Both the position numbers and the translations under genes were made by a program. Below the pieces are notes generated by a model. It had not been told where the DNA came from, searched no databases, and saw only the letters and a list, made by a program, of their open reading frames with translations. 64,000 nucleotides of DNA from Moniliella sp. 'wahieum' (lineage: Eukaryota), in NCBI GenBank assembly GCA_003971905.1, contig RSEE01000029.1, positions 620,001-684,000 on the forward strand, given 5' to 3'. How positions within the stretch are numbered: position 1 is the stretch's first letter; each line of letters starts with the position of its first letter. Below, piece after piece: positions 9,192 to 51,700 of the stretch.

Positions 9192-10947
<1,756 letters not shown>

Positions 10948-13660: not shown

Positions 13661-13663
13661 ATG

Positions 13664-20750: not shown

Positions 20751-20905
20751 TGACCTCGTCAAAACTCTTGAACCTCTTGAACCTCTTCAAAAGCTTTTGA
20801 AGCTTGAAGCTTGAACAGCTTGAACAGCTTGAACGTTGAATCTCTTGAAGCTTAAAACTTCGCTACATGGGCTTAGCGCTTACTCGCTTACTTTATTAGA
20901 GTCGT

Positions 20906-26057: not shown

Positions 26058-26299
26058 GAATGATATGGACGAGGGGGTGGGGGGCGAGCACGGGGAGTAG
26101 CAGCGGTGGTATGTGGGTTGTGCAAAGAGTAGTATATTTTGGAGGTGTGTCACGCGTTGGTGCGGTCTGCGTTGTGTGCGAGTGACGAGTTGCTAGCAGC
26201 GTTGCCAGTTAGTCGCTAGTAGCTATTAGCTGCTGGTGCTAGGGACTAGGTACCGGCCCTGGCCCATGCATCAATTGAGTACGGGGTCTGCGCACCAGC

Positions 26300-29200: not shown

Positions 29201-32200
29201 AATGACCTGTGATTCCCTGGACACCGATCATCGAGATCACCGATCATCGATCATCCCCTTGTACTTAAAATGGCAAAAGTAGGCTTGTAGCATGTAGAGA
29301 GAGTAATTTAGAAGCTGAACGTGTGAACGTAGCGTAATGTTCAGGTGACCGGTGACCGGTGAGCGTGGAGTGCCACAAAGGACAGGAGAAAATATCTAAC
29401 AGCCTCTTTCTCAATTGTCAACATGTCAACGTCTATGCACTGTGCCAGCTCTGATCTGCACGCTTTGGATCTGTGCTGCATGTGCCTACGGATAAGAGGC
29501 ACGCCAGGGGTACGATGTACCAAGAAAGACGATGTACCATGGTCGATGGCCGGTGGCCGCGGCGCACCTCGGCTCGGTGCTCGGCGGCCAGTTGAACGTT
29601 GAATGGAACATTGGGCCGAGCAGGCACAGGAACGGCCGGCTTCGAATGTTAAACGTTAAACATTAAGGGCGTTCCGCGCGTTACGCGTTAGGCGGCAACG
29701 CGGGTAACATTAACACCTAAGGCCTAAGGCGTTAAATAAGGGCCAGGCGCGAATAAGGGGGGCGTTGGCATTGTGAAACAAGGAAATTAATCAGCAAAAA
29801 AGTTTCGCATCATACGCATGCCCTTGAAGCTTAGCTTGAAGCTTGACCGGTGGAGTGGCTGGTTCGTGGCTGGGCCGAAAGCAAGGTCGGCAACGCATTG
29901 CTGTGCGCGGGGTGCAATACGCAATAGCAGCGGTGCGTCCCGCAGCCCCAGCCCAAATTGGCCGAGCAAGGGGCGCAAGCAGGCGCAAGCCCTTTCCGCC
30001 AAGCACCCGGTCCTGAGTGCCCTATAGGTTTCCCATGCGGCCACAACGTCGATACTCGGTTGCCCAGCTCAGTGTGGCTCTCAGCAAGCGCTGAATCTCT
30101 CATTGCCACCATTGTCGGTAACTACTGGCATATTAGCTCGCATTAATTCAACTCGAGTGCAACCCCTGCCGCGTGAAGTAATAATAGTAAAACTGCAGTA
30201 CTATAACTATTAGCTATAGTAACGCGTAACGCGTAACGTATACCCAACCAAAGGAACAGTGGCACCCCGGAGTTCCACTGAAGTACAGAAGCCACAAAGA
30301 GTCCACTGCATTGCAATGCGGTGCGTGAGCTGTGCACAGCGTGTGTGAACGCATGAGTTTTCCGTTTCGGCCACTCGTGCAGGTGACGGACCCTGGCGGA
30401 CTATAGAATGCCTACGTGGCGTACTGACTTGCGCGTAGTGCACACGACCCTGGTCGAGGCGCTGAGGCGCTGAGGGCCCTGCGGCCTGAAGCCCTGAGAC
30501 GCGCTGACGCCTGACGGGCCTGACGCCCCCTGGCGCCTCAGCCGGAGGCCTGATGGCGCTGAGGCGCTGTATGATGTAGGACGAGCAGTCTAACGGTGTG
30601 CCCGCGATGAGATCGATGAGCCGCGCACCACGAGGACTCATTATTACGGTTTAAGAGACGTAAGATCTGTAAGAGTTGCGCTAGCCAGTAGCACGCGTCG
30701 AGAATATACTCGCTCCATCAGTAATAGGGTTTGGCGGGGATAGTCGATAGCATGACACCGCCGCCACGCCGACAGGTACTGATGGCAACATGTAAAACAG
30801 AATGCCTGTCCTGGTGCCCTGGAGCTCAGCGCTCAGACTGAGCTTTGACCGGGACGGGCCTGAGGCTCAGATGCCCGGGACTCATGAGTGCATGAGCTCA
30901 GGCCGGCTCAGGAGTTCAAGCCTCGGGCTGCGTTATTTTATCGGTGCCAATTAAACCTGCACGGACCCGTCCAAAACAATAAGAGCAAAACTGATCATCG
31001 ATGCTCGTAGATAGCCGGATGACCGATGACCGGCCAAACCCGGTAACGCGGTAACGGCCGGTAACCATGAATCAAGAGCCGACAACCCGCGCTCAAGCGT
31101 GCGAACGCCCCCAAACGCCCTCAAAGGCAGAGCGTGTACCACCGCAACGTAAGGAAGAGTGTACAAGACCAGAGCAGGCAGTTCATGACGTTGATGTGCG
31201 TTGGACGTATGTTGAAATTGAATATTGAACGTTGATGCATGATGCATGATGGTACGTTGATGGTGCATTGCACATATGAGCTACGGACAGAAAATTCCTA
31301 CCCTCCAATATTGGGAGGGATGTACCAGATGGACCCGGACTTGGGCTACCCGCGCCACTGGGCCAGTGTGGCGCCACAAAGTGTACTCGGATGAGTACGA
31401 TGAGTACTGAGTCTCAGTACGGAGGTACTCAGAACTCTGAACGCAGAACATAGAACTCAGACTGAATCCTTAGTTCGATCCGAACTCAGATCCAGATCCA
31501 GACTGAGTAAGTCCTGAGTACTTAACGGAAAACTTATCTGAGTACTGAGTAGTACTGAGTTACTGAGTGTGCAACGAAGTATGCGCGTCACGCGTCACGC
31601 GACATGCCTCGGTGCCCCGGCATCCCATGTCCATATCCACATCCTTCGCGCTCCTGCTGCTCCCTGCTGCTCCAGCTCGACCAAGCTCAACAAAACCGCG
31701 CCGACCAGCAACCACGTGATAAGCCCAGTAACGATGACATGTCACATGTCACATGTCACATGTCACATGTCACTGGCGCCTCGGCCAGTAAATATGAATC
31801 TTTGATTCGATCAACATCCGTGACGCATGTGTGATTGGGACGGATCACATGTATCGCAACCTACAATTGCATGTTACACAGTGCTTATTATTTGGTGCTC
31901 TGTTTGGGTTGACGCGTTGATGCGTTGACGCGGTGACGGTGATATACATACTTGACGCCCGTTTGAGCCGCCTGTTCCCATTTCATCTTGGCACGCATGG
32001 GAAAACGCGTAACGCGTAACGCACAACTGGCCGGGAAACGTAAGTGTCACAATAGGATCGATAGTCGATTGAATATTGACCACGAATCCCCTGCTCAATA
32101 CTCCAGAACTCAGTGTCCTCAAACTCTTTTCCTTGTTCATTGTTCATTGTTCCATGTTCATCCTTCGTTCGTGATTAAAGTGTGACACGTGAAGAAGAGG

Positions 32201-35200
32201 TGAATATGAATGCGATTGCGACGGGTGACCTAGGTGGAACAGGCATGTTACGCGTTACGTACGTTCCTTTTATTCGCTTCGTTGTGATGCTGTGCTCCTT
32301 GAGGGCCTGAGATCTGAGAACCCGAGCGCCCGAGCGTCTCAGGCGTCCGCTTCAGGTGAAGCTTGAAGCTTGAAGCTTGAAACGTATCAATATCATATAT
32401 CACACATCAAGAACGTCACCCGTCACGCGCCGACGAAGTGCCGATGTGACAGTCCGCTCGGCTGCGGCTATGAGAATTCACAACGATTAATTACGTGTGT
32501 GGGGCAAGAGGGGCAAGCCAACAGCGTCTCGAATTCCGTAAGCGTCGGGCGCCCGCTGTGGGACCTTGGGCCGCCAGCTGCCCTCGGCGCCCCCCTTCTC
32601 CCCCAACGTTACGCGTGACGTCACGTGACGCGTAAAGCCTAAGCCCTGAGACGGAGGCCCGAAGCTTGCTTGAAGGGGGGGATTCGGCCTTGTTCTGCCG
32701 GGCAGCCGGCCGGGCGCTTATGCCCATTTGGGCATGTAGCGAAACTACAATGTGCACTGGGTTGTCGACAGCCTGGTGTCGCTCCAAAAAAAAGACGCCG
32801 GGCTACCCGAAGCACCGGCCAATGGCGAGGGTTGAAGAGGGGACAGTCCCATCTGGTGCGAAACGTTTTTACGCGTTACGCGTTCAAGACGTTGTTCAAG
32901 CGTGACGCGTGACGCGTGACGCGTGAAGCTTGAAGGTCTAGAAACTAGTAACTAGTAACGAGCTACTTGCTGGTATGTAGCAACTAGGAACTAGGAACTT
33001 ATAACTTGTAACGCGTAACGCGTAACGATTCATCGATATTCAAGCTTCAAGTGTTCTAAGATCTGGATCTGAATCTGAGGCCGGAGGCAGGCCCTGAGGA
33101 CTCAGGCTCAGATCTGAGTTTGGATATCAGGCAGTGGGCTTTGATATATTGATGACGGCTTGCTTGTGAGCGCATAAGCAGGTGACATTGTGGGCCCCAT
33201 GTGACATATGTGCGCTAGCGCTGAGCATGGGACATGACGCATGACGCACGTGATTGGTGATATGTGATGTGCATGGCATGTGAGCTGTGAGCTGTGAGCT
33301 GCGTGTGCGCCGAGCTCAAGCAGCCAAAATTTTGGGAGCTGAGACCACCGAGACTTGACACTAGCTTGAAGCTTCAAGTTGAAGAGCTCTTGATGTAAAG
33401 CATCAGTGCATCAGTGCCATGATGCATGAGTGCATGAGTGCCCTTCAGAGCCGGCGCTCAGTCTCAGCTTGTCCATTGCCAATATGCCAATTCGAAACTA
33501 GTAGAATTTGCCTGAGAACGTCGTGCGGGTCTGCGCTGCGTTCAGCCTGAACCCTGAACAGCGCGGCTCAGTCGCTCAGGCGCTCAACGTTGAATCGTTC
33601 AATACGTTCCATGTATTGCTGTATACTCCCGTACTCGGTAGTCAGAACGGACTCAGAACTCAGAGTACTGAATTCAGAGTACTAGAACTCAGTACTCTGA
33701 GAACTCAGATCCAGACCCAATGATGCTAAAGCCCAGTACGTTCAACGTTGAACGTTGAACGTTGAACAACAACTCCCATTCAGAGGGTTTACTACGTACT
33801 CCCCAGTGGCGCAGGCCCTGGGTACGATTGTTCCGGGTGCTCCCTGTTGTTCCTGGGCTTTGCACCCATTTGTCTAGCCGGCCCAGGCCAGCCCTATATT
33901 ATCCTCCCCGCGCCGACACGGGTAATATCACACATCACGTCTCACGATGATCAGGCCGTTGCTTCCGTCCCATACCGTCCCATACCGTCCCATGCCGTAA
34001 GCGCGAAACCCGTACCTTGGGCATTACGCGTTCGTTACGCGTTACGCACCGCCTCTTCCTGCCTTTTTCCGGCCCCAGCGTTCACCGGTCACCAGAACCC
34101 GCGGCCGTGGGCGTGCCAGGCCGTGCCACGTGACGCACCGGACGACGGAGTCGGCAGTACTAGTACTAGCGGCTAGTGGCTGAGACTGAGGTGCCGCCTG
34201 GTGCCGCCTGGTGCATCGTTTGCGATCATCGATCATGCACCATGCATCATCGAAGCATTAATCATTAATCATCGATCATCGATCATCGATCATCAATCAT
34301 CGATCATCCTTTATGTGTCACATGCCACGGTACAGCTCCCCTGCGACGGGCAGTGTGGGCGATGGTGCCGCTCTGTGCCGCGGCAGCCTATGGCATTCCC
34401 TGCGCACTCTCAGATCTCAGCCACAAGGAACGGCAGACATGCTCTACCCCGCAAAGCCACGCGCCACGTTGTTCCTGCATCGAAGTGTGTGTCGATATTC
34501 GATAGAGCGGCCCGGACGCCACCCGTGGTTGTGCCCCCCCCTAAGACAGGTCGCCGGCAAGGTGTCGAAGTGGGGACTTTTTCTGAGAGGCTCTGATGCG
34601 TGATGCGTGATCAGCTTGTTGCATATGGTGGAATCGAGCGTCTAAGGCCGTAGGCCCATAGAATGTTTTGAGTCTGAACCATTAATCAGGTCCAATGAGT
34701 ACTCAGACTGAGTGAGCAGTGATGTAGTGACGCGAGTGTGGCGTGGGGACATTTTCTGGTTTGGCGTAGTAGCGTGGAAGAGTGGAGCGCGTGGGCGTTG
34801 CAGGCCTATCTGGCTTGTGGTGCAAAGGGGGCGGGATACCGAGCTCGGAACCCCCGGGAGCGTGCCCACAAAAACCCGCAGTCATCATGCTCAAGCTTAC
34901 TTCTAATTGATTAATGCTTGACTTCAATCGAAAGTGACGGTATACTGACTCAGACTAGAGAAAGAGCTTCAAGCTTCAAGCTTCACGCGTCACGTTTCAA
35001 GTGTGCGCCACCGCGCCCATGCTTGCCGAGATTGGACCAGCTGCACCAAAAAACCAAACAAAAGAGAACAGGCAGAAGGTCTGAGGATGACTTCTGGTAA
35101 CCGGTGACCGGTGACCGGTGATCAATGAGCACTTCGATCATTTCTACTTCGTACGTAGTACAGGCACTGGGCGTTAGGCTGTCATGCGCATGTGTGTCAC

Positions 35201-36750
35201 TTCTGCCACAGAAGCAACTCTGCTCGCCAGGAGACAGAAGGTCTGGCAGCTTGACCAGTGCCAACAAGCCCCCGTGGCGTTGTTCAACGTTCAGGCCTGA
35301 GCGCCTGAGCGCCTGAGCTGAGGGGTGACACCGCACAGGTCACCGCCATCAACGTTCAACGTTCAACGTTCAACTTGAACGCCCAAGATGAGGCCGATGA
35401 AGCCGAGGTGCGGCAGGCCAGGCCTTTAACAAGCCTATGGCCTTAAAATTTAAAAGCCTCACATGTCACAGCCTCTGAGCATCGAAGTAAGTGCCCTATT
35501 TTAAGCACTCTGTGGAAGCGGCAAGCGGCATACCAGGCCCAGTACGCCCCTCTGTGATGCCGGTGATATATGATACGGGTCCGGGTAATTATTAAATGCC
35601 GCGCTGAAATGCAAATGATTAATCGATGATGAATAATGTACTCGAAAGACTCCCGAGACTGGGTTCTGACATCTGACAGATCTGACCCTAATATCGACTA
35701 CCTATGTCAAGCTTCCCTCGAATCGATCGGTACAACGACGACTGGGGGGCGGCTGGATCAGCTGACGGCGGGCGGGAGGCTTTCGGCTTTCCCCGGTTAT
35801 CGAGTTATCGGTTAACCCGTTCAACGTTCGACAGGCTGTTGTCTCCGTCCACAGCCTCCCCGGCATCAACACCGGGAGGCATCTTGCATCATGTGCATCA
35901 TGCATTATGCATTACCGCCATTTATTATTCTGTCTTTTTCCCCATCGACCTCATCGGCCTCAGGGCCTCATCAATCATCTCGTCATCGATCATCGCTCAT
36001 CTCAGCCTCAGGCGTCATCAGCTTCTTTCGACTCGATGGCACCTCGGCGGTATCTCAAGGGTCCTGTGGTCATTTCGCGTTTTGTTGCCTCCAACGGTTC
36101 CGGCTTGTGCTTCTCGTCCTGTCTGACTTCTGAGGCCCTCAATCGAATGTGCGAGCTCTGTAACGGAGTACTGAGTACTGAGTGGCTGAGAGCGGCTCAA
36201 GTGGCTTAAAACTTGAGACTCTTCTTTGTTACAAGCCAACGACCAAGAACTAACTGTCCGATGCCCCACCACTGAATTTGAAGCGAAGGATGTCAGCCTC
36301 TTTTTTGCTTCGGGTTCCACATTCAGTTGCTCCGCCTCTTAAATTGTGGGAGGACCATCGTTCTTTTCTTCACAGGTTGTCAGTACTGTCCGTACTGAGA
36401 CTCCGTTGGATATACTCAGTTGCTGAGTGTAATACTACTCATAGACACTCCTACAGGTGCTCACACCGTTGATCAGGAATGTCATACTTTTGCCATTCAT
36501 TTACTCAAGCCGCGAACTCACAACACATTGTGCCTCTTTTTGAATAGTACTCCGTTCCACGTTGACTCTGCGGGTGCGGGCCTGGACTCTGCCCGTGACA
36601 CGTTTAACCGCGTCTCGTGAAATAGTCAGGGTGCTTTGGCCTCGCCTCAGGCCTCAGGCCTCGGGCCTCACAGCCTCACCTGTGGCCGCCCAAATGTCAC
36701 AGCTGTGAGGGTCAGCCTGTGAGCCACAGAGCTCAGCCTGAGCGGCTCAC
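26300..36750. repeat. Gene-free region densely populated with T-N-A + 4-bp-palindrome heptamer arrays
   Basis: Examples: (AGATCTC)n 28569-28600, (ACCGGTG)n 29344-29362, (ACGCGTA)n 30219-30239, (ACATGTC)5 31737-31771, (AAGCTTG)3 32357-32381, (AACGTTG)n 33738-33767, (ATCGATC)n 34257-34307, (AGGCCTC)n 36645-36670. Confidence 0.92.
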
Positions 36751-38797
36751 TAGTTTCGACATTTTCTCTGTTGACATTCATCACATCAAAAATGCCCATC
36801 TGGAAAAGGGTGTTGCGAGCTTTGGTTGCGGCATCCAATAATGTGTGTGCTCGCCATTGATTCTTTCCATCGGCTTTCACACAAGGTTACGATCCTGAGG
36901 CCACGAGGGTGTCCCATCAAATGTGTCCCTCTCCGTCCACACAACCCGCCAAAATGTTGAGTAACAGGGTTCCACACCACGGGGAAGGAGAAACGTCAAC
37001 GTCTGTATAACACACACACACCCTGAGCAGTCTGCATGCAAAAACTGTCTCTCTTTTATCAAGTTTTGGAAACGTATAGAGACAGCCATACCACGGAGAC
37101 ACAGGGACAAGGCTCTCGTTGTCATCAGTGTGGGCGGACGTCGGCCCGGGGCCCGACCTACAGTTTAGAGGTGCTTTCCCTTGGAGAAGGGCTGGCCACA
37201 CTCAGTATGTAATCAGTACTCAGTACTCACGGTGGACCAAGCCTTCTGAACCCTGAACCTTGAGCAACACTTTTAGCGGATCTGAACTCTGAATGGGGCT
37301 AGAGAAGACGAGGCAAGAGGACTATTAATTGGGGCGTCGGCTCGCGTGATAAACGTGTGTAATATGTGCCAGAACGAGCAAGACTAGCGGGCCTGTAGTC
37401 CGTGGGCCTAAAGGGTTGGCCAGAAGGTTGACGCAGGCAAAGCGCAGGGGATGAGGTAGGTAATGCGCACGGTCGAACAACTCGATACTCTTGTAGAATA
37501 GCCCCGGGGGGATCCATACAGAGTTGACTGATTGTTGGAGATCGACGGCAAAATTGAAGCCCGGTCGAAAGGATACTGGAAAGCCAAGATATTGGCTGGA
37601 AGCTGGATGGAGGGACCGGTGGTGAACCATGAGAAACGCGAAAGTTGCCTCGTGGATCAAGAATGGATCGGCAAAAGGATGTTGATACAAAATGACCCGC
37701 TAAGGGAAATGGAACATGGATCAAACTGATGGAAGTCGATCAAGGGTCATACAAACACAGAATCCATAACGAATAGACAACATAACGAAGAACGTGGTGG
37801 GTCTCATGATCATGATCTTGGCTCTCAGAAAGGAGCACAGACCAAGTAAGGAAAAGTTACCACACTCAGCCACAGGAACGGAGAAAGTCAAAACCAGCAA
37901 AAGGCCTAAAGTAAGCTAAGGGCAGGTTCTCTGCCCTCATCCACAGGAGCGAGAAAAGCATGAGAGAAGAGTCTCGCAGCGAATACACACACACACACAC
38001 CGGGAAACTATAACGCCCAGATGCGGGTGTTGTTTTTTTCTCACATGGATGGATAAAAACAAGTGTCCAATGAAGGCAAACTCTGCTTCTTATCCTTGCA
38101 CCGCCTCTCGACTGCAAAAGCAAAACAAAATCGAAGCCATGGGAAGCGGTCTACTGACTCAAACGTGATAAGGAAGGTCGGTTTCGGTGTGAAGAAACGT
38201 GTCATTTTAGTGCATATAACACACTGAGAAGGAAGACTAAGGTGCCTCTTTTCTACTGCTCTCTGAAAGGCCCACATCCCTGCCCCGCTTTATTGACAGA
38301 TCTGGACCAAAGTGGAACAGCAGAGGCAAAGAATGTGCACTATACTATTTATTAGGTTACTCTCTGCAACTATTTTACTAGTACCCCTTGCCAGCATCGT
38401 CGTCTCTTCTGCCCTTGTTCCGGTTCCTCATTCCTTCGTTATCCTTGCTGTGGGTCCAGCCCTATTCGGTTGGGCCCATACATCCATGGGCAGCACCTGT
38501 CACAGTGACAACTGTCACTGATATGAGAGATGCGTTTTTGAGCCAATGTCTCCTGGTTAGGGCTGACCTACTATCATCAATGAGTCCGCACTACTTATAC
38601 ACTTATACATGGGAAGAACCTACGTGTCCGTGAGTGGCATCCGACGTTCTGATGCTATGCAAAAAAGGGAAGACGGTCACGAGGGAAGGCTGGCACATGC
38701 ATGGCGGATGGATGCAGGGATGGGGGGTACAGGAGACAAGAGAGGCGATAGGCATTGAGGGTAGGCTTGGCGATAGGTTGTGGGCCTAGGTAGAGAG

Positions 38798-41418
38798 CTA
38801 CTGGGGTGCGGTCCAGTCAAACTGAGCAAATGCTTGGTCTTCCGCCGGGGTAGGGGGAGAGTCAACGGATAAGGTGGGCTGGGCGTGGGTGTGGAGTTGT
38901 TCAAAGTGGTGCGTGTCCAGGGCGGCTTGAATGTGCGGCAGAAATGGAGGTGGAAGTTGCTTGGCCAAGAGCAGGTCCCAGTCCAACGTGCGAAAGAAGG
39001 GATGCACCTTGACTTCGGCCGCATCGGCTTGTCCGCCGCCCAAGCGGCAGCGCGGGTCGTGCGCTAGTAGACGGTCAATCAAATCTTCACTGTATTCGGG
39101 CCATTGCGCAGCGTTCTCCTTGTAGTACTTGCCTTCTTGCACCCGCCCTGCAATTTCCGCAATGTCGTCTCCAAAAAAACGGCGCGACATTGAACAGCAG
39201 CTCGTACAGCAGCACCCCAAACGCCCACCACTCGACCGCACGCGTGTATTAGCAGCAGGGAGAATCAAAGATCTGATCCACATATGTCATGTCAGTGCCA
39301 TGGTCCAGAACAGGGAGGAAACTGGCACAGTCAGTTGTCCCTAAAAGCGCACAGCGTACCTCGGGAGCCATAAATTCCGGCGTGCCAGTAAACGTATCGG
39401 TTGTTGTGTTGTGGAACATGTTGCCGTACAAATCGATCAGGAACGGGTGCCCTTTGGGGTTGGCGCTGACAATATCAATAAACGTGTCACGCTCGCGGTA
39501 CAGCAACCCCAATTGCCTCTCTGTTTCGGCCAACAACTCGGTCTTGACCACCGCCTTGAGCGCCACCAGCCGCCCTCCCCCGCGTGCTAGGAACACCGTT
39601 CCAAATGCTCCGCGACCCAAGATACGTAGAAGAGTGTAGTCCTCCAACTTGGTCGGCATGCGAGGCAGCACCGCGTCCCTTCTTTCGCGCTCTCACCACC
39701 GGCAACTCTTGCTCGGCTGGCACCTGGAAGCATCGCCCGCCACATCGCCCGCCACACCGCTTTCTGCAGGCACCTGGGAAGCACCGCCTGCCACACCCTT
39801 TCTTCGGCAAAGTGAAGGCGTGGGATGAGGGGGACTGTGGATGCAGGCGTACGCGCACGTATAACTACCTCCACCCCATCGTCGACGCCGCACCCGGGCC
39901 AACGATTCCCCTTCTGTGTGGGAAACAGTGGCGAAGGACGGGTCCATCTCGAGCGGAGACGGCGGTGGATGCAGTCCCAGGGGTCGGAGATGGGCATGGG
40001 CGGAGATGGGCATCCGTAACTTGACTAGGTGAGTAGGGGTTGTAGAAGAAGGTGGCGTTAGGGGAGACGGTTGAGTTGGCACTGGGGATCTGGATCTCAG
40101 TAACAGGGGAAGTGGCGATGGCTGAGCGGGGGGGGTCAGTGGCCGTCTCAGAAGGGGCTGGGGTGGGTCCGGGACGTAGAGATTGGCGTAGTACGGCGGT
40201 GGATAGGGGACCGACGGTGGGTTGGGGTTGATGCTGGCCACTGGCGTAATATGGGTGGACGCGGTGACGGTCCGCCTGGGAACGACCGACGGGGGCGGGG
40301 CCGGGGTTTCGGAGGGGAGAATGACAGAGGTAGGAGCGACGGTGGTAGTGGAGGTAGGAGCGACGGTGTAGTGGAGGTAGAGGAGGTAGAGGATGTGGTG
40401 GGGCGGTGGTTGCGACGGCTGCTGCTACGAGGACCGCGGCTGAAAGTCTGGTAGAGCTGGAGCGTTTCTCTGGGCTTTCTCCACAGGTCAAAGGCAGGCG
40501 GGGCGCACAGGCTTCGTGGGCCCGAACCGAACAGCGAGAGCACTTGCTCCCCTTGGCGCTTGGCACACTCCGCTTGCCGCAGTGGGCGCACCAGTCCCTG
40601 CTGAGCACCACCATCTTTGGTGGTTCAAAGTCGTGAGGGACTTGAAGCGACTGACAAACCCTTTTTCCTCTTCGGTCACCGTCGAAGCAAAGCAAGGGAC
40701 CCAGACCTGCTCTACACACGCTCCGTGGCACCCGTACGAGCAGCGAGAACATTGCACTTCAGAGTCCTTGTTCTTTTGTCCACAGAGCGCGCAGACAATG
40801 CGAGGGAAACTGGTGCTAGCCACAAACTGGTGCCCGTGTCGGCCCTGAATCAGCCCGACCGGGGCAGGATTTTTAACATCACGGCGTTGCGGCCCAAGCG
40901 CCTCTCGTCCTGCTTAATGTAGAGGCTGATCTGCATTCGTGCGCCCACCGGTTCGAGCAGGAGCAGGGCGGTGGCCTCGGGCTTCTCCAGCTTCTTGCCC
41001 GAGTTGACGCCCACCACATAGTTCATCGATAGCTTCCGCTGTATTTCTAGCACTTTCGCCAAACAGATCCATCCGATTGCAACCGGCGTGGGGGACGGGG
41101 CCGCGCTGTCGAATCCCACAAGTTGGTCGTACACGATCACTTCGACGTACTGCACGCTCTCCAACGTGACCTGCAGTTGACTGAGGCGGATCCGACGGGC
41201 TTACCACCTCCACCCCGACCCCCATCTCGTCCAAGGCAGCGGGCTCGGTCTTGTAGCTGAGCCCTTGTTGGCCCGCATCTCAAAAAACGTCCGACGCTGC
41301 TCGGACCGACACTGGGGCCAACGTGCTCAATCCCACTCACCGTATACACTTTGCAGATAAGCGTGCCCGATACCTTGGGCACCTCTTGTCGCTTCAATTC
41401 GGGGACTTGCTCCTTCAT
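38798..41418 (-). pseudogene. Diverged PKC1-like protein kinase C copy (C2, two C1 domains, broken kinase domain); intron 39273-39359
   Basis: C2 (VEVIVYDQ..IGWI; LEPVG), C1a (GHQF...CALC...CSRCSYGCH..C), C1b (PHDF...WCAHCG...CSRC...H..C), LGRGAFGTV, VALK, GTPEFMAPE and the AGC C-tail. Kinase subdomains V-VII are absent and there is an in-frame TAA at 39249-39251. Confidence 0.8.
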
Positions 41419-41705
41419 CTAAGGGATCATTTGTACCCCACCAATCTGGGTGAGTCCCATGACAGGGCCCCTGTGACAGGGTCGTCGTAATTCACGTTCC
41501 ATGGATCGAGCCCACCTCTGGACCACCGATCATCCTTGCTCATCTCCTCCTTGCTCCACCACTTCGCCTGTGCCACGGTTACTCTTTGCACCACCGCTCG
41601 ATATAGAAGTAGAGATCGAGTACTCTCAGGCAGTACTCTACGTCCTACGTACAACCCCGACACTGATGCCCCGCTGCGTCTGCTGGCGCCAACCGTGCAT
41701 TGCGC

Positions 41706-42866
41706 TCACGTGACCTGCGCCCGCTCCAGCAGCGCACACACACTCCAGTGCGCCCGCTCGTCGTACTCGGGCTCGAGCCCTGGCCGCGCCGTCTGGGCGG
41801 GGGGCAGGCGCAGCCTGCTGCCGTCCCACTGCGGCAGGTCCGGGTCGCCGCGCCAGCCCACCGAGCGCACCTCGCCCCCCGGCGCCAGGTACCGTTCCCA
41901 CACGCCCTGCGCAGGCGCCTCCCGGTCCGGCACGAGCCCCGTCTGCGCGGCCAGCGCGACAAACGTAGCCAGCGGTCGTCGTCCCGTGTGCAAGCCCGAT
42001 GATCAGGACCTTGCCTCGGGGCGCGAGCAGCGCGAGCAGCGTAGTCAGCAGCGTATCGGCGCCGATGTCATCCACAGCACGTCCGAGCACAGAATCAGGT
42101 CGTACCCCCCCCCTTGGGTCCAGCCGCGCGCGGCTTGCATCTGCTCCTCGTTGCCCACAGCAGCGCTTGCGCCTCGGCGCGGCCCCCTTGGCCGGTTGCG
42201 GTCCACGTTCGCCTTCAAGCACGCAAGAAGCATCTCATCCGGGTAGTCGTTGCCAGGCTCTGTCTCACACACACACATACACGCACACATCCCACAAAAA
42301 CAGATGGTTAGTGAGGGAGTGCCACCGGTATCGGGCAGGAGATGGATCGGGGGGGGGGGGGGGATCCCGCGTTCCAACCCGGGCTACGCGCAACAGCGAG
42401 CAAAGATCAATGCAGGGCGCGGAGACGTACGAGAGAAGCGCGAGCTGGGCGGCTACCAGGCTGGGCAGGCCGGTGCCCGAGCCCAGTTCCAGCACGGCTT
42501 TGGAGCGCACGTCGAGGGCGGTGCGGATGTGGGCGTGGGGCAGGGGAAGCGAGGTGAGTTCGCGGCCGCGGCCAAGGTGCACGTCGGCCAAGAGCTGGGC
42601 CATGTCCGCCCACTGGCCCATTGGTACTGCGCCGCAATCTTGGTGTTGGCAGCCTCGACATCGGGGACGGAAAAGTGCAGGTCGTGGGCGAGGGCAGGAT
42701 GGGAAAAGGCGAGCTGAGCATGGGCGCTGCCCTCGGCAGGCTGGGACAGGCCAAAGATGCTGCCCAAGGCATCCTCAAACACGTCGCTGGCGTCGAGCTC
42801 AGCAGGAGATGGAGATGGAGACGGAGATGGAGATGGGATGGACAGCGGCGCGGTGGTGGCAGCCAT
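41706..42866 (-). CDS. Family-16 SAM-dependent protein methyltransferase (EFM7/NNT1-like); intron about 42260-42430
   Basis: AQYQWASG, KAVLELGSGTGLPSLVAA, NDYPD..LL..LKANV, YDLILCSDVLW, GLHTGR; C-terminal ERAHWSV. Confidence 0.85.
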
Positions 42867-43595
42867 GGGTGGGGCGGAGCTGATGGCCACGGCTGCGGCT
42901 GGGTGGCAGCGGCCGAAGACAGGAAGGAGCAGACCAAAAGCCAAGACCTGGCGAGGTGGTCTCGGTGTGTTACTCGGTGGCGCCTCTAGCTCTGAGATTC
43001 TGAGATCGGAAGCTGAAGTCTAAAGCGGAAGTGTGGCAGCGTGTCACATGTCAGGCGGTACGTAGCATCATGCATCATGCATCATGCATCATGCACCAAC
43101 GCCGCCGCTTTTTGTCTGGCGCACCACCACAGCGCCAGTGCGTGGGCGTGCCTGCAGGCTGGGTGGGTGAGGACACAGTTCCAATGCCAGGCACCCTCGC
43201 ACTGCAACAGGCGGCGTGTGGAGACATGCGGCGATGCGAGCCTCTCGGCTGTCTGTCGCACAGCAACGTTATGCGTGCGTTCGCAGTGCCTGGTGCGTAG
43301 CCCCCGTCTCACACACTCCTCCCTGGTGGCCGTCATCTTCTTCCTGGGCGGGATGATGATTAACGTATTAATATGATTTCTGTCACCGGTCGCCCGCCTC
43401 GTCGCGACGCGACGCTGGGCCTGGACGCGGCAAGAACAGGCAACAGCCGCCCAACACGCAAAAACAGGCAAGAACCCACGCCCGCTTCCCTGTCCGAGTG
43501 CGGTGCTGTCCAGCGCGCGGAGCGTGGCTGCCGCCTCGCCACTAGGGACTATATACTAGCCGCACTCGCCACGGCCGATCGGGCCGCGATGCACA

Positions 43596-45617
43596 ATGGT
43601 GCATGGTGTGACATGTGACATGCCACATGCGATGCATGATGCACGACACAGCCCCCTGCAGCACCAGCCCGTCGCTGCCCTTCTTCCGTCCGGCCCACTT
43701 GAGCCGCAATCCTCCGCAGCCGTCCGCCCCCGCTCCTCGCCTGGGAACAGCCCCCCCTCGCCCATGCCCATGCCCCCGCCCCCCGCCCCCCGGCGCCCCC
43801 ATGTCCATGTCCATGTCCATGTCCATGTCCATGTCCATGTCCATGTCCATGTCCATGTCCACGCCCATGTCCACGCCCATGTCCACGCCCATGCCCATGC
43901 CCATGGCCCTGCAGACGCACATGTCCATGCCCCTGGGCGCCCGCATGCACATGCCCATGCCCATGCGCCCCGCCCCCCGCCCGGTGCTGCCCCGCACCCG
44001 CACCTGTACTACGCCCCCCCGCGCCTGGCCCTGGCCGCAACCCCAGCCCCGTCCCCAGTCCTGCCCGCCCGCCCTCCGCGTCGAGCCACGTGGCCCGGCT
44101 GACCCAGCAGCTGACGCGCGCCAACGTCGATACCTGGCTGGCGATTGCCTCGGCCATTGTCGTTGTTGGCGGAGAGGGCGCGCCGAAAGATGCGCTGGCG
44201 TCGGTGCAGCATGCGCTGCGCCACGACCCGCAGTCTGCAGCGGCCTACCGTGTGTTGGGACGCGTGTACCTCGACCTGGGCCAGCAGCCGGACGACCATC
44301 ACCGCCCTCCACACCTCCCTCTCCCTCGCGCCGGACGAAGGCGCAACGTATCAAATCTTGGGCGACGCGTACCTTGCCTTGGACCAGCTCAAGCCCGCGT
44401 ACGAAGCGTACCAACAAGCTCTGCGTCTGCTGCCGGACCCCGATGTACCCGAACTGTGGTACCCGATCGCCATCCTGTACGAGCGCTATGGCTCGCTCGA
44501 GTACGCCCAACAGGCACTGGAGCACGTCGTGGCCCTTGTCACCCAGTCGCAAGACAGGGAGGACGAGAGGATACGTCACGTGCTCGCTAGCCCCGCACGC
44601 TTCCCTCACCTTCCCGAGGTGCTGTATCGTCTCGGCTTACTCTATCGCCAGCAAGGCATGTACCCCGAGAGTGCGCGCGCCTTTCTCTTGCTCGTCGACG
44701 TGCCGCCGGCCCAGCTGACCAGGGGCGACGTGTACTTGGAACTGGGGCAAGTGTATGCGCTGGCGGAGGAGTTTGGTTCGGCGCGGGACGCATTGGAGCG
44801 CGCTTTGACCAGCTCGCCCCCGACCCAGCTGCAAGCTCACCAAGCCCTAGCCTCGCTCTACCTGTCCCGCTACTCGGGCCTGCTGGACCTGGACCAGGCC
44901 AGGATGCACATCTTTGCTGCGCAGCAAGGTGCGCCCATCGACGCCGATCCCGTCCTGGCCGCCCGCACAGCCTACCTCTCTGGCCGCTTACACGCCGAGC
45001 ACGAGCAGGTAACCGAAGCGTTTTCGGCGTACCAACAAGCCATTCGCCTTGCGCCACAAGACGCGCGGACCTGGACCGCGATCGGCGTGCTGTACTACCG
45101 CACCAACCAAGCTGAAGACAGCTTATTTGCCCTGGCCCAGGCGGCCCAACTGGCACCCACGTTGCCCGAACCGTGGTTCAACCTCGGATGCTTGTACCTC
45201 CACACCCCGGACCGCTCCGACGACGCCCACCAGGCACTCCGGCGCGCCCAATCCGCTGCGCGGGCCCAGGCGCTCGCATGGACCACTTACGCGCTTGCTT
45301 GGCCGACTGGGACCGCGAGAGAACCGGTGGACATTGATACCCTCGTCCCGCTTCCTCCCACGGACGAGACGGCGCATGGAGCGACGCCCAAAGGAGCTGA
45401 AGCGGACACGGAAGCGGACGCGCAAGCGGCAGTGGAAGTGGCAGTGGAAGCGCCAGTGCCAGTGGAAGCGGGAACGCCAGCAGGCGCAGGTACAGGTACA
45501 GGTACAGGTCCCGGCGACCGGGACGGCGCGGCGGTGGATGCGTTGCTGGGCTTGGCCTCGGCGCGCTTCTCGCCCAAAAAGAAGAAACTCGTGTCGCCGC
45601 GGCGGGGGCGGAGGTAG
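43596..45617 (+). CDS. Ssn6/Cyc8-like TPR corepressor, strongly diverged; start and N-terminal frame uncertain
   Basis: TPR units resembling Ssn6: YQQALRLLPDPDVPELWYPIAILYERYGSLEYA, EVLYRLGLLYRQQ, PPAQLTRGDVYLELGQVY, AFSAYQQAI...WTAIGVLYYRTNQ..DSL, EPWFNLGCLY. C-terminal basic NLS-like PKKKK..RRGRR. Confidence 0.8.
43801..43905. repeat. (ATGTCC)10 hexamer array with degenerate extension
   Basis: Ten exact copies at 43801-43860, followed by ACGCCC/ATGTCC/ATGCCC variants. Confidence 0.96.
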
Positions 45618-45686
45618 GTGGGCCTAGGCGGTGGGCCTAGGCGGTGGTCCTAGGCGGTGGTCCTAGGTGGTGGACCTAGGCGGTGG
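45617..45686. repeat. 13-bp tandem repeat GGTGGNCCTAGGY x5
   Basis: Five copies beginning at the stop codon of the SSN6-like gene, each containing CCTAGG. Confidence 0.9.
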
Positions 45687-46604
45687 CGGTTGGTTTGTTC
45701 GCTGTCGTCGGCCCCGCGGCGAACGCGGCTGATGCGGGGCGCCAAAAGGCCCTTGGCTGGGCTTGCTTGTAGCATACATATGCCAGTGTACACCTACATG
45801 AGGGCTGTGCTGGGTAGCGGGGGGGGTAGAGGGTAGTAGATAGAGTAGATGTCACATGGGGCGTGGGAGATAGGCGGAGAGAGAGGCAGCGGCTGGGGGA
45901 AAGCTGAAAGGTTCAACATTCGCCTGAAGAAATGGCAACCGGGATGGCTGAAATTGACCGGGATGGCTGAAATTGCAACTGTGTCATGATGGCATGGAAA
46001 TGGTGCTTCTGACATAAAGGAACGTCTCAGCAGCCAGTAGCTAGCAAAGAGTAGCCAGGAGCAGGCGCTGCGCTGGCTTAGTGACCGTGGCTGGCGGCTG
46101 GGCCGCGGAGGCGTGTCGCATGTCGCAGTGGCCCAAGCCAGGGGGGCGCAGGGCGTGGTGCGGTGGGCTGACCGGTGACTGCCGGGCGCCCCCCCGCTGC
46201 CCCAGCCCTGGCAGCGCAGCGCAGCGCCAGTGTCAGCACGGGCCCTGCACCCACACCTCACCCTCACGCCTTCGGCCTTCCCCGGCCACCCCGACCCCTC
46301 AGCGTGGGGCGCTGGCTGGCCAAGTATGAATATGACGTGGGACGCGTGATGCAGATGGACACCTGCCAATATCCAACGCATCTTTGCTGTGCGCTGCTAC
46401 GCCCCGAGCCCAGCCTCTAATCTCTCGCCGTGCCCAGCCCAGCCCGTTTTCCTGTGGCCAGCTTGCCACCCCGTCCCTGCCTCTGCCTCTGTCCTTGCCC
46501 TCGCCCTCGCCCTCTCCTCCGCCTTTGCTCTGCCTCTGCCTCTTCCCCCCATCAAGCCCACGCCGCCGTTGGCCCTGCCCGCTTGCTCCTTCCTTCCTTC
46601 ATCC

Positions 46605-46942
46605 ATGGCTGTACGTCTCCCTACCTCCTCCTCCCCCCCCCGCCCTCGCCCGCCGCTTACCTCCCCCCTCTCTCTCCATCCCAGACCCCCTTTGCAGCGC
46701 AAGAAGCCCAGCTGGCGGCGCGCTACGGCGGCAAGCTACCTGGCAAGAAACCGTGGCTGCAACAGCGCCTCAAGGAGCGCAAGTACTTTGACTCGGGCGA
46801 TTACGCGCTGAAGCAAGCAGGCAAGCCGACGGACAATGAGGTGGGACAGCAGATTGCCACCCCGCAAGTCCTCGGCGCAGGGACGGTCGATGTGTCGGAC
46901 GCTACGACGCCCTCTTCCCCGCTCGACGTTCAAGGGGTTTAG
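46605..46942 (+). CDS. IGO1: Endosulfine (Igo1/ENSA family); intron 46611-46684; may extend to about 47505 if a frameshift is an error
   Basis: ATG GCT | GTACGT...CAG | in-frame TPFAAQEAQLAARYGGKLP...LQQRLKERKYFDSGDYAL, containing the Greatwall/Rim15 site FDSGDY. Confidence 0.88.
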
Positions 46943-48211
46943 CTTTGCGAAGGCTACCAAGCCGGACTTGACTGCCGCCAAAGACGAGTTGCCCCCCGAC
47001 GAGATGGCTCCGTTTGTGCCCCCGCCTCGACCGACGTATTCACATTCGACCCCAACCTCAACCTCCACCTCCACCTCCACCTCGGCCACGGCCTCCGACC
47101 CAACCTCCGTTCCCGCCCCAACCTCCACCCCAGCGCCTATCTTGAACCCCGTCTCCCTTGACCCTCCTTCGTTCCTCTCGTCGTCCCCGCACTGCCGAGC
47201 TGCTACGGCGCTGCTTCCCTCTTCGTCCTCCCTTTGCGCACGCGCACGATCCGCTGCCCTGTGCCCATGCCCAGACCCAGACCCAGACCCACGTGTCCAC
47301 CATCCCCATTCACCATGCCGGTCTGCCTCATGGCCGATCGAGCGTCGCGGGCTCCTTCTCCTTGCCTGGTCAGCCGCCGTGGCAGGCAGCCGTGCCCAGC
47401 GGCGAACCGATCGAAGAGGACACCCAGGCTCAGGCTCGTACCTCCTCCCACCTCTCCAGGGAAAGTTTCTCCGCGGACGAGCTGGGGGACGCCACATTGG
47501 ACTGATGACAATGGACGGACGGACGGACGGACGGACGGATCGATGGACTTTTTGTTTGTTTGGGCCTTGTTGGCTCCGTTTGCCAGTTGCTCTTGCCGGT
47601 TGCTGCTTGGACTCCTACGCGCGCACAACTTTCATCCATGCTTGTCTCTTTTTGCTCTCAGCTCTCGCGCGACGAGGGGGGGAGGTAGGCGCCACCTCGG
47701 CCGTAGCTCGCTAACGGGTTGGCTTGGCTTGACTTGGCTTGGCTTGGTAGACCTCAGCAGCCAAAAAGCGGTCGGAAAGGCGAGGTAAGATAGGCCAGAC
47801 CAGGTGCCAAAAGGTACTTACGGCTGCAGAGGCAGACTGCCCTGCGTATCGCACGGTCGTGCACCTGACACAACGGTGTTAACCAATGCCCCTTTCGGCT
47901 GTGGTTAATGATTATGCATTATGGGATTGCGGGCCAAGGGGAGGAGCTAAGACCACCAGTGGCACTGGGCTTTCTGTACCTCTGTAGTACGGCCTACGGA
48001 GAGAGACTCAGTCGGGTGGGGAGGAGGGGGTAAGGCCTAAGGTAGGGCAAGGTATGTGGGAAAGTGAGTAGCACAGTGGGATCCGGGACACTGGGGAGGA
48101 CTGAGCCTAACCTCAGAGGTCAGGGCCTCAGTACTGAGACTCAGTAGGGATCGGTTTTGGGCTAGGGCGGTGAGGTGAACGTGTTAAACGAGGTTAAACG
48201 TATGAAGACGG

Positions 48212-48295
48212 TGACCGGTGACCGGTGAACATTGAATATCGGCATCATGCATCACCGGTCACCGGTCACCGGTCACATGTCACATGTCACATGTC
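48212..48295. repeat. Compound heptamer array with several palindromic cores in one register
   Basis: TGA-CCGG-TGA-CCGG-TGA-ACAT-TGA-ATAT, then TCA-TGCA-(TCA-CCGG)3-(TCA-CATG)3. Confidence 0.95.
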
Positions 48296-49337
48296 GTATT
48301 CATAGTGACGTCACTTGTGACAGAGGGACGTGGGACAGGTGCCCGGTGCAACGTGCACCCCCGCGGCGGAGCCAATAAGACAACGATTAAATATTAAAGC
48401 GATTAACGAGGCCAGCAGTTGGCTGATCGTGCCGTTGGCACTGCCCCTGTCTGCTCCTGCCTTACACGCCCACACTGTGCACTATACCCTACTCGGGCCC
48501 TCACTAGTCACTCTGTCCTCGTACTACTCACTCCCTACCATATACTACGCCCGACCAACTAACTGCTTCAAGCTTCAAGCTTCAAGCTTCATGCACTTCA
48601 TGCTTCAACAGCTTCACTAGTCACTGGTCACTTGCCCCTGTCTGTGACCTTCATGAGGGAGACACCGGCACCAAAAGAAGAGAGAGAACAGAGGGGATAT
48701 CCACAGCGTACCCCAAACACAGCGTCACGACCTTACAAAAACCAAAACAGACTGTTGTGTATAGAGCAGCTGGAACTATAAGCTCTGGCATCAATAGTCA
48801 TTGCTCACGCTCATCCCATAGCCCGCAAGCCAGCTGAACGCTGAACAACCTGCTAGAACCCCGTCATCATTTCCATGCCACAGGTGGACGGAGGATGGGC
48901 CCTGCGCCCTGGTAGCCACCCTACGGCACGGTGATAGTGAGGATACTCAGCCCTCAGCCTGAGCGCTCAGCAAACTGGCTATAGATGCAAGTGCTGTCAA
49001 GAAGCACTAAAATGCATAATGCGTAGTGGCCATGGTGGCTGGAGACCGGTCATCGTCAGCCTTGCAGGCAAAGCCACCAGAGTGCTTAATGAGACGAAGT
49101 TAGTGAACGTTGAACGTGTTGAACCCAGACTAGTAGTAAATGTAGTGAAGACCGCCTCAGCCAGCCCCTGACAGCCGCCCACCTCCCCCCTCTAAATCCC
49201 TACCACCGAAAACAATAGGCGCGGAGAATAGGGCAATCCGAGGGGAGGGGGTGGCGACTAACGACAGCTCTATGGGGCCGGACCCACACGCCCCGCCACG
49301 CATAAGCTTCGCACCCAGTGAGTCTAACTCTCTCTGC

Positions 49338-51700
49338 ATCCATACCATTGGCAGAGCTTAAGGCTGGGACAAAGAAACGCTACGCCTAAACCATCATGCC
49401 AGTGCTGTTTGGTAGCGCCAACCCCGCTTAAGGAACCAAGGGAATCGCCAGGAGATCAGGACCCTCCGGTGCCCGCCATCCGTTCCCATACCCGAGGTAG
49501 CGCGTATGGATACGGATGGACGTGGTAGACATCCGAGCGAGGAGCCACTTCCATTCAGAGTCAGTAGCCAAAGACTTCCAGTGCCCAAGCATCTTTTGCC
49601 CGCTGTCTTGGTGCCTTAGTATCCTCGCGTCGTCAAGACCAGGAAACGGCGCTTGAGTGCGTCCTTGGTGCTAACAAGGCGTTCTTGTCGCATTCTGCTT
49701 GCTCCAGCAGCCGAAAGCAGCTCCTTCTCCCGACGTTCCAAGGGCGTCGCGGTGCTCTCACATGCATTACCCTCCGGTTCGCGCTCTGCGCCTCCTGCGA
49801 CCCCGTGTCGCGCAGCGTGTCCACCTCCATTCCTGAACCTCCGATTGCTCCAGGCCCCATCACGCGGTAGTCGGTGCGCAGTGCCCTCCTCCCGCGCCTC
49901 GCCCCATCCTCTTCCTGCACAGTAGGATTGTTGTGGACGTGGGTGCGGGGATGGAGCGCATGAGCTGGAGAATGGGCTCCCGCACTGCCGCATGCGACGC
50001 AGTAGTAACTTGGCCTGGCTGCGGGTGCACACCATGATGTGCTGCAGCGAGGACATGACGCCGCACTTACACATGCTGCGCGTGGTGCGGCACAGCGTGC
50101 GGAGCTGGAGACCAACCTGGACTGCTGGTCAGAGAGCTTGAGGCACGGGGTGGATGGAATGGCGGAGAGCCAATTGTGGCTCAGCGGGTTGCTGTGCTCA
50201 ACCACGTGACGACCATCGGCATCGTCCAGTTTATGGAGCAACAGCTGTTGTCGACTCTGCTCTCACATCGGCCGGCAGCGCTGGCATTGCTTCGTAAATG
50301 CGTTTGCCGTCTTCGCCGTTTGCGGTCCCGATCGGTCAACGTAGTGGTAATAGGAAAATCGTTGACCTCGGTGGCCGCGGCACAGGCGTGGGGCGCAATA
50401 TACAAGTAAAGCCGGCTGCCACATCCTCCCATCCGGAGAGGCAGGATCATGAGCATGTCGAACTGGTCGTCCTTGGCACCTTGGGGGACCTCATCGCCCC
50501 GGATCCGCCTGAACTCCGTACAAATGAAGGCATCAATCTCGGCCAGCACATCGTCTAGCTCTCCCCATCTGCATGGTGCGCACAGCAGATGGCGCAGCTT
50601 GGTCTGAGTACTGTATGCCATAGTAAGAGGCGTCCCTGCGCGGTGGTGCCATCATACTTGGGCATGTTCTCCCTCAAACAGGCTGGCCAGTTGGTCCCGG
50701 AGCCACGATCGACGACAGTCTACCTCTCCCACACAAGTCCCCAGGACCTGCAGACCATCCTCCCGAATCCGGTCCCGACCCGCTCGACGCACTTGCGCAG
50801 GTTGATGCGTGAGGCCTGACGCGTCGTCTTCCAAATCTTCGCAGCTAGGCCGGTAATGCCGGCTCGGTCCGAAAATCGTATGTCGTCCAGGTATGCCATC
50901 ACAGGTGCCCCGGCGGCAGCTCCTTTTCCAACCTCTCCAGCGTGGGCCGCACTGCGATGGAGAAGAAAAGGCGGCGAGGGGATCTCCCTGCCGAACGCCC
51001 TCTGCCGACAGAACGCCTGTCTCATTTCCGCCCGACGCAACCCAAAGCTGGGTGGGGGTACCATAGATCCATCGACCCAACGAGAGGAGATGGGGGGGCG
51101 AAGCTGTGGAGCACCTTGGCAAATGTGCGACGGCGCAGTGTTGAAGGCATGGGTAAAGTCGAGCATGGCGACGTGGTTGAAGTCGCCCAGTTCCACATCG
51201 TTCTCCCTGCCTGTCGCTGCCATGCGCTCGACCATCCGTACGATAGACTCCACCCGTTGGCGATGCTACTCCCAGCTGAGTGGGGAGAAGCCAGCTGTTC
51301 GGGGCGATCGCTCGAGCGATGCCTTTGGCCAACAGACGAGAGATCAGTTCCCCACAGGCGATGTGGTGGATACCTCCTGATGCCTTCTCCAGCGGGGCAA
51401 GACGGGAGGGCAACACAGCTCACGGCCTGGAGCAGTGCCGTGGTAAATACTCTTGGTGGGGGCTGTGAGAAAATCAACGAAGCGGTCGCATTCGAGGACC
51501 GCACGTAGGAAGGGCTGGGTCCACCCGGATAGACCTACTGCCCCAACGTCCGGTTGAATGTGGCAATCAAAGCAGCAAAAAGTCGATTTTGTCCAAGTCC
51601 ACCACGGTGCGGTTACTGTCTGCCGCGTCGGTGAGGGTAGTGCCCGGCGGTACCACGCGGCCTGGGTGGGTAGGATGAGCTGTATACTATAACTCTCGAC
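49338..51700 (-). mobile_element. CRE/Cnl1-clade non-LTR retrotransposon (RT plus restriction-like endonuclease), frameshifted; 5' boundary uncertain
   Basis: GLSGWT, LAPLEKASGGIHHIACGELISRL, QLGV, LDFTHAFN, GVRQGDPL, YLDD, LPLRMGGCG, NWLSAIP, CKCG...HIMVC zinc knuckle, HAAV, RTDYRV and the K..K endonuclease region. Confidence 0.87.

Follow-up and report, generated by a model that had tools for sequence, protein, structure and literature searches.

What produces a tandem array that keeps a strict 7-bp register while its palindromic part changes from one end to the other? The question is raised by a 64,000-nucleotide stretch of the genome of Moniliella sp. 'wahieum' (assembly GCA_003971905.1, contig RSEE01000029.1, positions 620,001 to 684,000), hereafter the window, which corresponds to C29:620001-684000 in an assembly of 69.5 Mb and 223 contigs and which harbors many heptamers composed of a TNA triplet and a 4-bp palindrome. 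An earlier, sequence-only reading of the window had proposed that whole palindromes are exchanged within such arrays through fold-back synthesis and a short duplication acting on either side of a TNA. The analyses presented here reveal a rule-bound insertion process that copies the bases flanking a TNA, and we argue that the units are probably footprints left, over repeated rounds of hairpin-type excision, by EnSpm-like elements whose 7-bp target is centered on TNA.

Palindromic heptamers are anchored on TNA and follow their flanks

We defined a unit as the 10-mer T-N-A-xyy'x'-T-N-A, that is, a TNA, a 4-bp palindrome (the core) in which y' and x' are the complements of y and x, and a second TNA, and obtained expected numbers from 30 dinucleotide shuffles. 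The sequence-only reading had placed the pattern in 32901-48295, where it is real (64 units; shuffles, mean 1.7 and maximum 6), but it is not confined to that region: the whole window contains 194 units in 143 arrays, with all 16 palindromic cores represented. There are 111 units in 26001-40000 (shuffles, mean 2.6 and maximum 6) and 18 in 48001-50000 (versus 0.1 in shuffles), and two zones stand out (window coordinates; no strand is assigned to these or to the arrays and sites listed below):

26019-38700: main noncoding unit zone, 111 units at 858 TNA sites
47900-49130: second dense noncoding unit zone

Three coding stretches of the window harbor no unit at 122 TNA sites, where ≈16 would be expected at the intergenic rate. 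Among 6-mer palindromes, only the class A...T is enriched (199 versus 44.6) and the T, C, and G classes are not; among odd 7-mer palindromes, only those centered on TNA are enriched (193 versus 47.1) and those centered on ANT, CNG, and GNC are not. N is identical on both sides of the core in 163 of the 194 units. Units with a complementary N on the two TNA triplets (18 of 194, 17 of them C/G) are commoner than other mismatches and suggest a less frequent product in which the inverted copy is longer; these units have a similar appearance to some 5- and 6-bp alleles.

A larger sample, comprising 393 kb of contigs C29 and C10 and not a random sample of the genome, contains 407 arrays or approximately one per kb. 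The sequence-only reading had called for a test of the terminal core against the dinucleotide flanking the array, and the outcome in this sample is clear. In single units, the terminal core matches the flank in 262 of 337 cases (500 permutations, mean 42.7), and in compound arrays, the flank predicts the core at one end in 15 of 17 (permutation mean 2.5) and at both ends in 10 of 17 (mean 0.12). A compound array is a single site ab-TNA-xy harboring left units with core b'a'ab, followed by right units with core xyy'x'. All four arrays quoted in the earlier reading are present, with the amendment that the final CATG unit of the fourth ends in TCG and not TCA. The left-then-right rule fully explains three of them but not the middle CCGG block of the fourth (48245-48289 in this comparison). 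These four arrays, and a second three-core array, are as follows, with C102 denoting the contig that carries the paired copy of the region:

32903-32933: compound array, site CG-TGA-AG, with left cores CGCG (three) and then right core AGCT (one)
34255-34306: compound array, site AA-TCA-TC, with left core TTAA and then right cores TCGA; the C102 copy is shorter
34969-34992: compound array, site CT-TCA-CG, with left cores AGCT and right core CGCG
48245-48293: three-core array, flanks predicting left TGCA and right CATG, not the middle CCGG block
31219-31249: three-core array, flanks predicting left ATAT and right TGCA, not the middle ACGT

The middle blocks of the arrays at 48245 and 31219 would require one intervening substitution.

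Genome copies differ by whole, flank-derived units

RPC2 is found four times in the assembly, with 96% and 98% identity inside pairs and 88% across pairs, and an Ssn6-like gene of the window likewise has four close copies (C29, C102, C68, and C142). The assembly therefore contains genome copies in two pairs, that is, it is a hybrid four-copy assembly, and the copies can be used as alleles. The window is collinear with C102 over 10194-63986. Our allele set consists of six alignments (two long and four shorter) with 217,214 matched bases and 7,492 mismatches, and insertions or deletions (indels) were considered clean if bounded by six matching bases on each side, a constraint that kept 23 of 63 seven-base gaps in the window/C102 pair. 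The rule under examination is that abTNAxy gains xyy'x' (right) or b'a'ab (left) plus a TNA.

This rule accounts for 28 of the 49 clean 7-bp indels in the six alignments, compared to 0, 0, and 1 for the centers ANT, CNG, and GNC. As the sequence-only reading had supposed, either side of the TNA is used (left 16, right 12, one of the 12 fitting both), and events are present in both subgenome pairs. In the two long alignments (44 clean 7-bp indels), 23 fit the rule without a palindrome in the short allele, and the others comprise one lattice extension, one TCG variant, two cases of slippage of other units, and 17 that do not fit. The short allele lacks a palindrome, and the added unit is not present there, in 27 of the 28 rule-fitting cases, unlike in slippage, where an adjacent unit is copied; of 26 TNA events of 7 or 14 bp that fit the rule or nearly so, 2 extend an existing lattice. 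The alleles thus differ in whole 7-bp steps with a flank-derived core, as anticipated, and not by stepwise substitution through nonpalindromic cores. Representative sites are as follows:

34082-34091: site GT-TCA-CC, right core CCGG in the window; left core ACGT three times in C102
48501-48510: site CC-TCA-CT, right core CTAG in the window; left core GGCC in C102
35284-35300: compound array arisen between the copies, left core ACGT in the window and not in C102
33356-33358: empty TGA site; C102 gained a right-type unit with core CATG, left flank unaltered
34720-34722: empty TGA site; C102 gained a left-type unit with core CTAG

Seven sites harbor unlike cores in both copies. At three of these (34082, 48501, and one on C10), one copy has taken the left core and its counterpart the right; two gained the predicted second core (29681 and 30220), and at one the flanks differ (46169). 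Because of the first three, left and right cores are best viewed as two products of one site and not as a swap of one palindrome for another in midarray, and this part of the earlier proposal is abandoned. With 28 scars per 7,492 mismatches, there is approximately one event per 270 substitutions. We conclude that this is a real, ongoing, rule-bound insertion process at TNA in noncoding DNA. An assembly artifact was considered and rejected: 1-bp indels, which make up 1,196 of 1,939 clean indels, resemble read errors, yet errors are not expected to be TNA-specific, palindromic, and absent from coding DNA.

The duplicated unit extends two bases on either side of TNA

The sequence-only reading took the duplicated piece to be the 5-bp TNAxy. 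Among the clean alleles, 3 of 14 8-bp indels consist of a whole ab-TNA-xy, complementary base(s), and a second whole 7-mer, and 2 of 11 9-bp indels have the same form with two complementary bases (+7:+8:+9 = 28:3:2). These forms retain two whole 7-mers, and the duplicated unit is therefore the 7-bp ab-TNA-xy, with a sharp stop two bases on either side of TNA. In fixed DNA, pairs of TNA 7-mers two bases apart harbor the predicted palindromic (P) dinucleotide in 33 of 51 cases (chance 8.4; controls 1 of 9, 5 of 56, and 3 of 33), and pairs one base apart harbor the predicted base in 27 of 35 (chance 14); in the window only, the predicted spacer is found in 12 of 13 two-base and 11 of 12 one-base pairs. 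An arm of two with two palindromic bases occurs 260, 27, 30, and 1 times with 0, 1, 2, and 3 left bases recopied (+7, +8, +9, and +10, respectively; controls 0-11), and an arm of three with three palindromic bases occurs once. Two arrays of the window illustrate the longer forms:

35296-35318: 8-bp type array, a whole 7-mer, one palindromic base, and a whole 7-mer
20810-20834: 9-bp type array, a whole 7-mer, two palindromic bases, and a whole 7-mer; one unit differs between copies

In C102, a scar of the 9-bp type, with CT between two whole 7-mers, is found at the 32903-32933 site, and the 34969-34992 site is without the CGCG unit, with a 9-bp type scar in place. A plain 7-bp tandem duplication (core xyab) was tried as a TNA-specific product and rejected, with 47 occurrences at TNA versus 65-71 in controls and none unambiguous among the alleles.

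A transposon family of the same genome duplicates 7-bp nnTNAnn

Contig C29 harbors at 72158-77127 an element of 4,970 bp with 78-bp terminal inverted repeats (TIRs) that begin CTCACTGA and share 88% identity, tandem repeats inside both ends, and the 7-mer GT-TGA-TG flanking each side. A genome search with the element end returned 19 ends at 13 distinct sites, both lower bounds. The 7-bp flanks are identical in five of six two-ended copies (four of ≈5 kb and one of 378 bp), and the sixth has two unlike flanks, both nnTNAnn. In all, 18 of the 19 ends adjoin nnTNAnn, and the remaining one would if shifted by 2 bp; nnTNAnn is found at 3.8% of positions by chance. The duplicated unit of the scars is thus the same as the 7-bp nnTNAnn duplication of this family. 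Three 5-kb copies at different loci are 97-98% identical and differ mostly by small indels; their private substitutions (13, 4, and 1 in 4,014 columns) are far below the ≈3.5% divergence between genome copies, and the family has therefore been recently mobile. Scans of ≈0.8 Mb of DNA for TIRs with a duplication retrieved solo long terminal repeats (LTRs) and array artifacts only, and an nnTNAnn-specific scan retrieved only the known copy.

Judged by its sequence, the element resembles a CMCT (EnSpm-like) transposon that departs from EnSpm proper in two defining features. It shares with EnSpm/CACTA relatives of this clade a CAC near the TIR end, TIRs with subterminal tandem repeats (a feature of CMCT transposons), a length of ≈5 kb, and transposase pieces with a resemblance to DUF4218/Tnp2 proteins. 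In contrast, all ends read CTCAC..GTGAG in place of the strict EnSpm/CACTA termini CA..TG (CAC..GTG), and the duplication is 7 bp and TNA-centered in place of the strict 2-3 bp; according to PMC12730594, elements of the CMCT clade end in CA..TG and duplicate 2-5 bp. The best transposase piece matches a gene on C34 bearing PF02992 (Tnp2; E 4e-6) and also shares a relative with it (P0229), and inspection of the pieces by eye shows CxxC, HxxxH, and, farther downstream, a glutamate, in separate frames. A word search for longer relatives of the piece found none, and a full HMMER scan gave two weak matches. Two Tnp2 (PF02992) genes, C17:557095 (L109) and C34:514908 (L110), have long frames with no evident TIRs or 7-bp duplication; the latter is located ≈8 kb from a TIR element.

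Several observations on individual copies are recorded here. C8:478644-479530 and C23:153453-154501 (L123 and L124) have two element ends with the same flank, and the C8 copy contains an extra CT between target and TIR, which could represent P nucleotides joined back onto the end of the element, a duplication of the TIR start, or an error in the reads. C11:228241-233089 (L113/L114) and C38 (L125) have flanks that are both nnTNAnn yet different, as expected from recombination or aberrant excision between neighboring copies. Five unit-like 10-mers, some with matching flanks, are common to three copies of the 5-kb element (C29:72158-77127, L127, and L128). Finally, two near-identical tRNA-like sequences (L108:628-710 and L103:3180-3242), inverted, flank the C29 element.

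A hairpin-type excision model and the evidence that limits it

The scars may be accounted for as follows. An EnSpm-like (CMCT) element would insert at nnTNAnn and duplicate 7 bp, giving abTNAxy-element-abTNAxy, the arrangement found in the one family described above. On excision, both flanks would close into hairpins without loss of a base, in the manner of RAG and Transib, and a host nuclease would open each hairpin not at its tip but two bases farther 3', so that palindromic 3' overhangs of 4 nt remain, xyy'x' (left) and b'a'ab (right). End joining that keeps one overhang whole and drops the other would give TNA-xyy'x'-TNA or TNA-b'a'ab-TNA, the two +7 products found, in near equal numbers. 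Speculatively, this dominant class could reflect ligation of both strands over a 4-bp mismatch, later resolved by replication. A +9 product may arise when one overhang stays whole and the other loses only its P bases, a +8 product through a joint via one or two shared bases, and +11 would be a rare joining product. A scar has two TNA targets, and the alleles reveal that new cores are added at the end matching their type, left or right; since each scar doubles the target, the process would feed itself and keep the 7-bp register, with slippage and point changes then lengthening and varying the arrays.

The inserted bases are the reverse complement of the flank and not element ends, the hallmark of P nucleotides. 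Flank hairpins on excision are documented for hAT, Transib, RAG, and Muta1 (PMC5499845), and the scars resemble the products of hairpin-forming DDE enzymes (Ac/Ds, Hermes hAT, Transib, and the Mutator-like element Muta1) and V(D)J joints in combining a duplication with palindromic bases copied from the flank. The two P bases found here match hairpin opening at +2 in V(D)J-type joints, where Artemis opens hairpins mainly at this position (PMC2175297); the genome has a gene with a DRMBL domain, in which Artemis and Pso2 are not distinguished. Unlike in these footprint systems, one product pair dominates and the scar doubles its target and iterates into arrays. Ac/Ds scars are diverse and have at their center the complemented form of the element-adjacent base (PMC5873905), whereas the palindromes found here are even, of one main size, and have lost no tip base, as from RAG-type hairpins. 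Arabidopsis Pack-CACTA elements have 3-bp duplications and varied footprints (PMC6379663).

A number of observations weigh against this model, among them the target preference of the family. In its 13 distinct targets, 58% of half-sites have T at the first flank position, and N is C/G in 13 of 13; among the 28 scars, the first flank position is C in 38% and T in 23%, and N is C/G in 23 of 28, near background TNA sites. The two differ at the first position with p = 0.0016. A narrow preference in the family set against broad flanks in the scars suggests a further source, with the family as one agent and not the sole one, barring a change in its preference or a misleadingly small number of sites. 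The scars also far outnumber the elements, with 407 arrays in 393 kb versus at least 13 element sites genome-wide; there is no TIR copy in the 64-kb window, and no occupied-versus-scarred pair is found among the large indels listed for three alignments, in which precise excisions would leave no visible trace. The transposase is fragmented in all three copies read, with no intact frame, although many breaks are private to a copy and may be read errors; its best piece has an Atlas value of 0.96 to a basidiomycete cluster named for DUF4218 with a recognition value below the threshold of the tool, and the stop-free pieces match no transposase family in Pfam. Our literature search found no description of flank hairpins for EnSpm-type enzymes. 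On the allele side, 21 of the 49 clean 7-bp indels are not exact fits, and one of the seven unlike-core sites (28060) gained a core that was not predicted. Finally, the direction of change (short to long) rests on parsimony because the other subgenome (C68 and C142), which aligns to 6500-16700 of the window only, is too diverged in noncoding DNA for use as an outgroup.

Alternative origins of the units

The alternative that survives best is an enzyme that forms hairpins, whether derived from a transposase or of other origin, and that makes cuts staggered by 7 bp at TNA, scarring the site without lasting insertion, through abortive integration or a domesticated RAG-like activity. Such an enzyme would be a standing genome-wide mutator leaving +7 scars at accessible TNA, in tens of thousands of arrays, and would remodel intergenic DNA with approximately one event per 270 substitutions, and the TIR family would then display only the chemistry of its relatives. 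The excess of scars over element sites, more than 1000:1 if the sampled density holds, a scar flank spectrum near background where that of the family is narrow, and the two Tnp2 genes on C17 and C34, which lack evident TIRs and a 7-bp duplication, speak for this idea. However, hairpins on a fully duplicated 7-mer would need prior fill-in, which insertion would supply naturally; each Tnp2 gene was found once in the four-copy assembly by a lossy search, unlike a retained host gene; and one scar per ≈270 substitutions should be attainable by a hopping element. We consider an insertion-free enzyme unlikely.

Template switching during replication or repair, in the form of a polymerase that passes TNAxy, copies two or three bases back, and re-primes at TNA, would dispense with a transposon altogether. 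Switching between short inverted repeats is an established phenomenon in which, as here, a short inverted copy is joined to a short duplication; it formally yields the +7 product on either strand, the fold-back synthesis of the earlier reading being a mechanism of this kind and its formal rule correct, and the complementary N in 18 of the 194 units is what a longer inverted copy would give. It would nonetheless need a loop-free turn at short alleles that, in 27 of 28 cases, offer no inverted repeat from which it could begin, and nothing in it fixes TNA, an arm of exactly two, or a stop two bases to the left of TNA; no template-switch mutations tied to a single triplet and geometry are known. 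It would also leave the matching 7-bp nnTNAnn duplications of a mobile element as a coincidence. An excision footprint, with a 7-bp target-site duplication and hairpin-derived P nucleotides, fits the 7-bp unit of the scars better than free fold-back, which we view as improbable.

The arrays could also be ordinary microsatellites shaped by slippage and point mutation or by selection for protein-binding sites, with the short alleles as deletions. Slippage does contribute to some arrays (the 2 of 26 TNA events that extend the lattice), and deletion between 5-bp direct repeats would give the same short allele in events that have no outgroup polarity; yet all 16 cores occur and track local flanks, left and right products are found at one site in different copies, and the pattern is found at no other central triplet. 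Slippage as the origin is largely refuted, and we regard this explanation as very improbable. Footprints of TNA-duplicating PIF/Harbinger elements, or of hAT7 or Kyakuja elements with their 7-bp duplications, merit the least weight of all, in that no match to PF13359 (Harbinger), PF05699 (hAT), or PF18758 (KDZ) is found in the genome (weak negatives, the searches for the latter two having detected no control either), the unit is 7 bp and not 3 bp, and Ac/Ds scars are centered on a complemented base where even palindromes are found here.

These families do have points in common with the scars. PIF/Harbinger and Tourist miniature inverted-repeat elements have a TNA-like triplet at the target center, although theirs is a 3-bp duplication (TTA/TAA for mPing) with mostly precise excision, precise in mPing itself (PMC4561436), and the basidiomycete hAT7 and Kyakuja share the 7-bp duplication (PMC12730594) but encode different transposases. 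The broad flank spectrum of the scars calls for another family. No TNA-centered target or genome-wide scars are stated for hAT7 or Kyakuja in the passages of PMC12730594 consulted.

Host and other features of the window

In a search restricted to longer proteins, basidiomycete sequences (69-73% identity) rank above those of other groups as matches to a copy of RPC2, and the host is therefore taken to be a long-branch basidiomycete on protein sequence comparison. The open reading frame at 44145-45617 encodes the Ssn6/Cyc8-like protein, with ≤36% identity to fungal proteins; 24516-26018 corresponds to a cyclin and 39249-39671 to a kinase piece. A PKC-like gene (C1 and kinase pieces) at 38798-41510 on the minus strand is missing, relative to its C102 copy, 229 bp inside the kinase domain at 39422 and ≈1.9 kb near 41430-41501, which represents either a broken allele or assembly loss. 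The region 16700-44100 spans ≈27 kb, whereas the anchors that bound it are separated by <8 kb in the other subgenome (C68 and C142), where the array-rich zone has no counterpart.

A dispersed repeat family at 20906-21269 and 49338-51200 comprises copies 65-85% identical, with one end common and cut lengths of 64 bp to 1.4 kb; it resembles truncated non-LTR retroelements and has no Pfam match. Its copy at 49338-51200 matches DNA close to the C29 element, but the match falls outside the element, and the family was rejected as unrelated. An old repeat at 37290-38000 has ≈40 matches elsewhere in the genome at 66-79%, and C10, C102, and C115 harbor solo-LTR-like elements (843-873 bp) that end in TG..CA and are flanked by duplications of 5 bp.

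Implications

P-nucleotide footprints and fungal 7-bp duplications were already known, and the tests made here concern the alleles, the limits of the 7-bp unit, and the duplication across the element family. A literature search, with Repbase and the supplements of PMC12730594 outside its scope, found neither footprint-built heptamer arrays nor a CMCT family with a 7-bp TNA-centered duplication. If the excision-footprint model is correct, transposon scars and not polymerase slippage would be the main origin of short tandem repeats in this lineage, at approximately one array per kb sampled, and the genome would preserve the traces of thousands of earlier hops, made by elements of which few are left. 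The scars would also constitute evidence from the living cell for clean flank hairpins, of the kind formed by Transib and RAG, in the action of an EnSpm-like transposase on a 7-bp target beyond the 2-5 bp of its clade. Their unusual uniformity would further allow hairpin opening, and the joining of two mismatched 4-nt overhangs, to be read out in a fungus.

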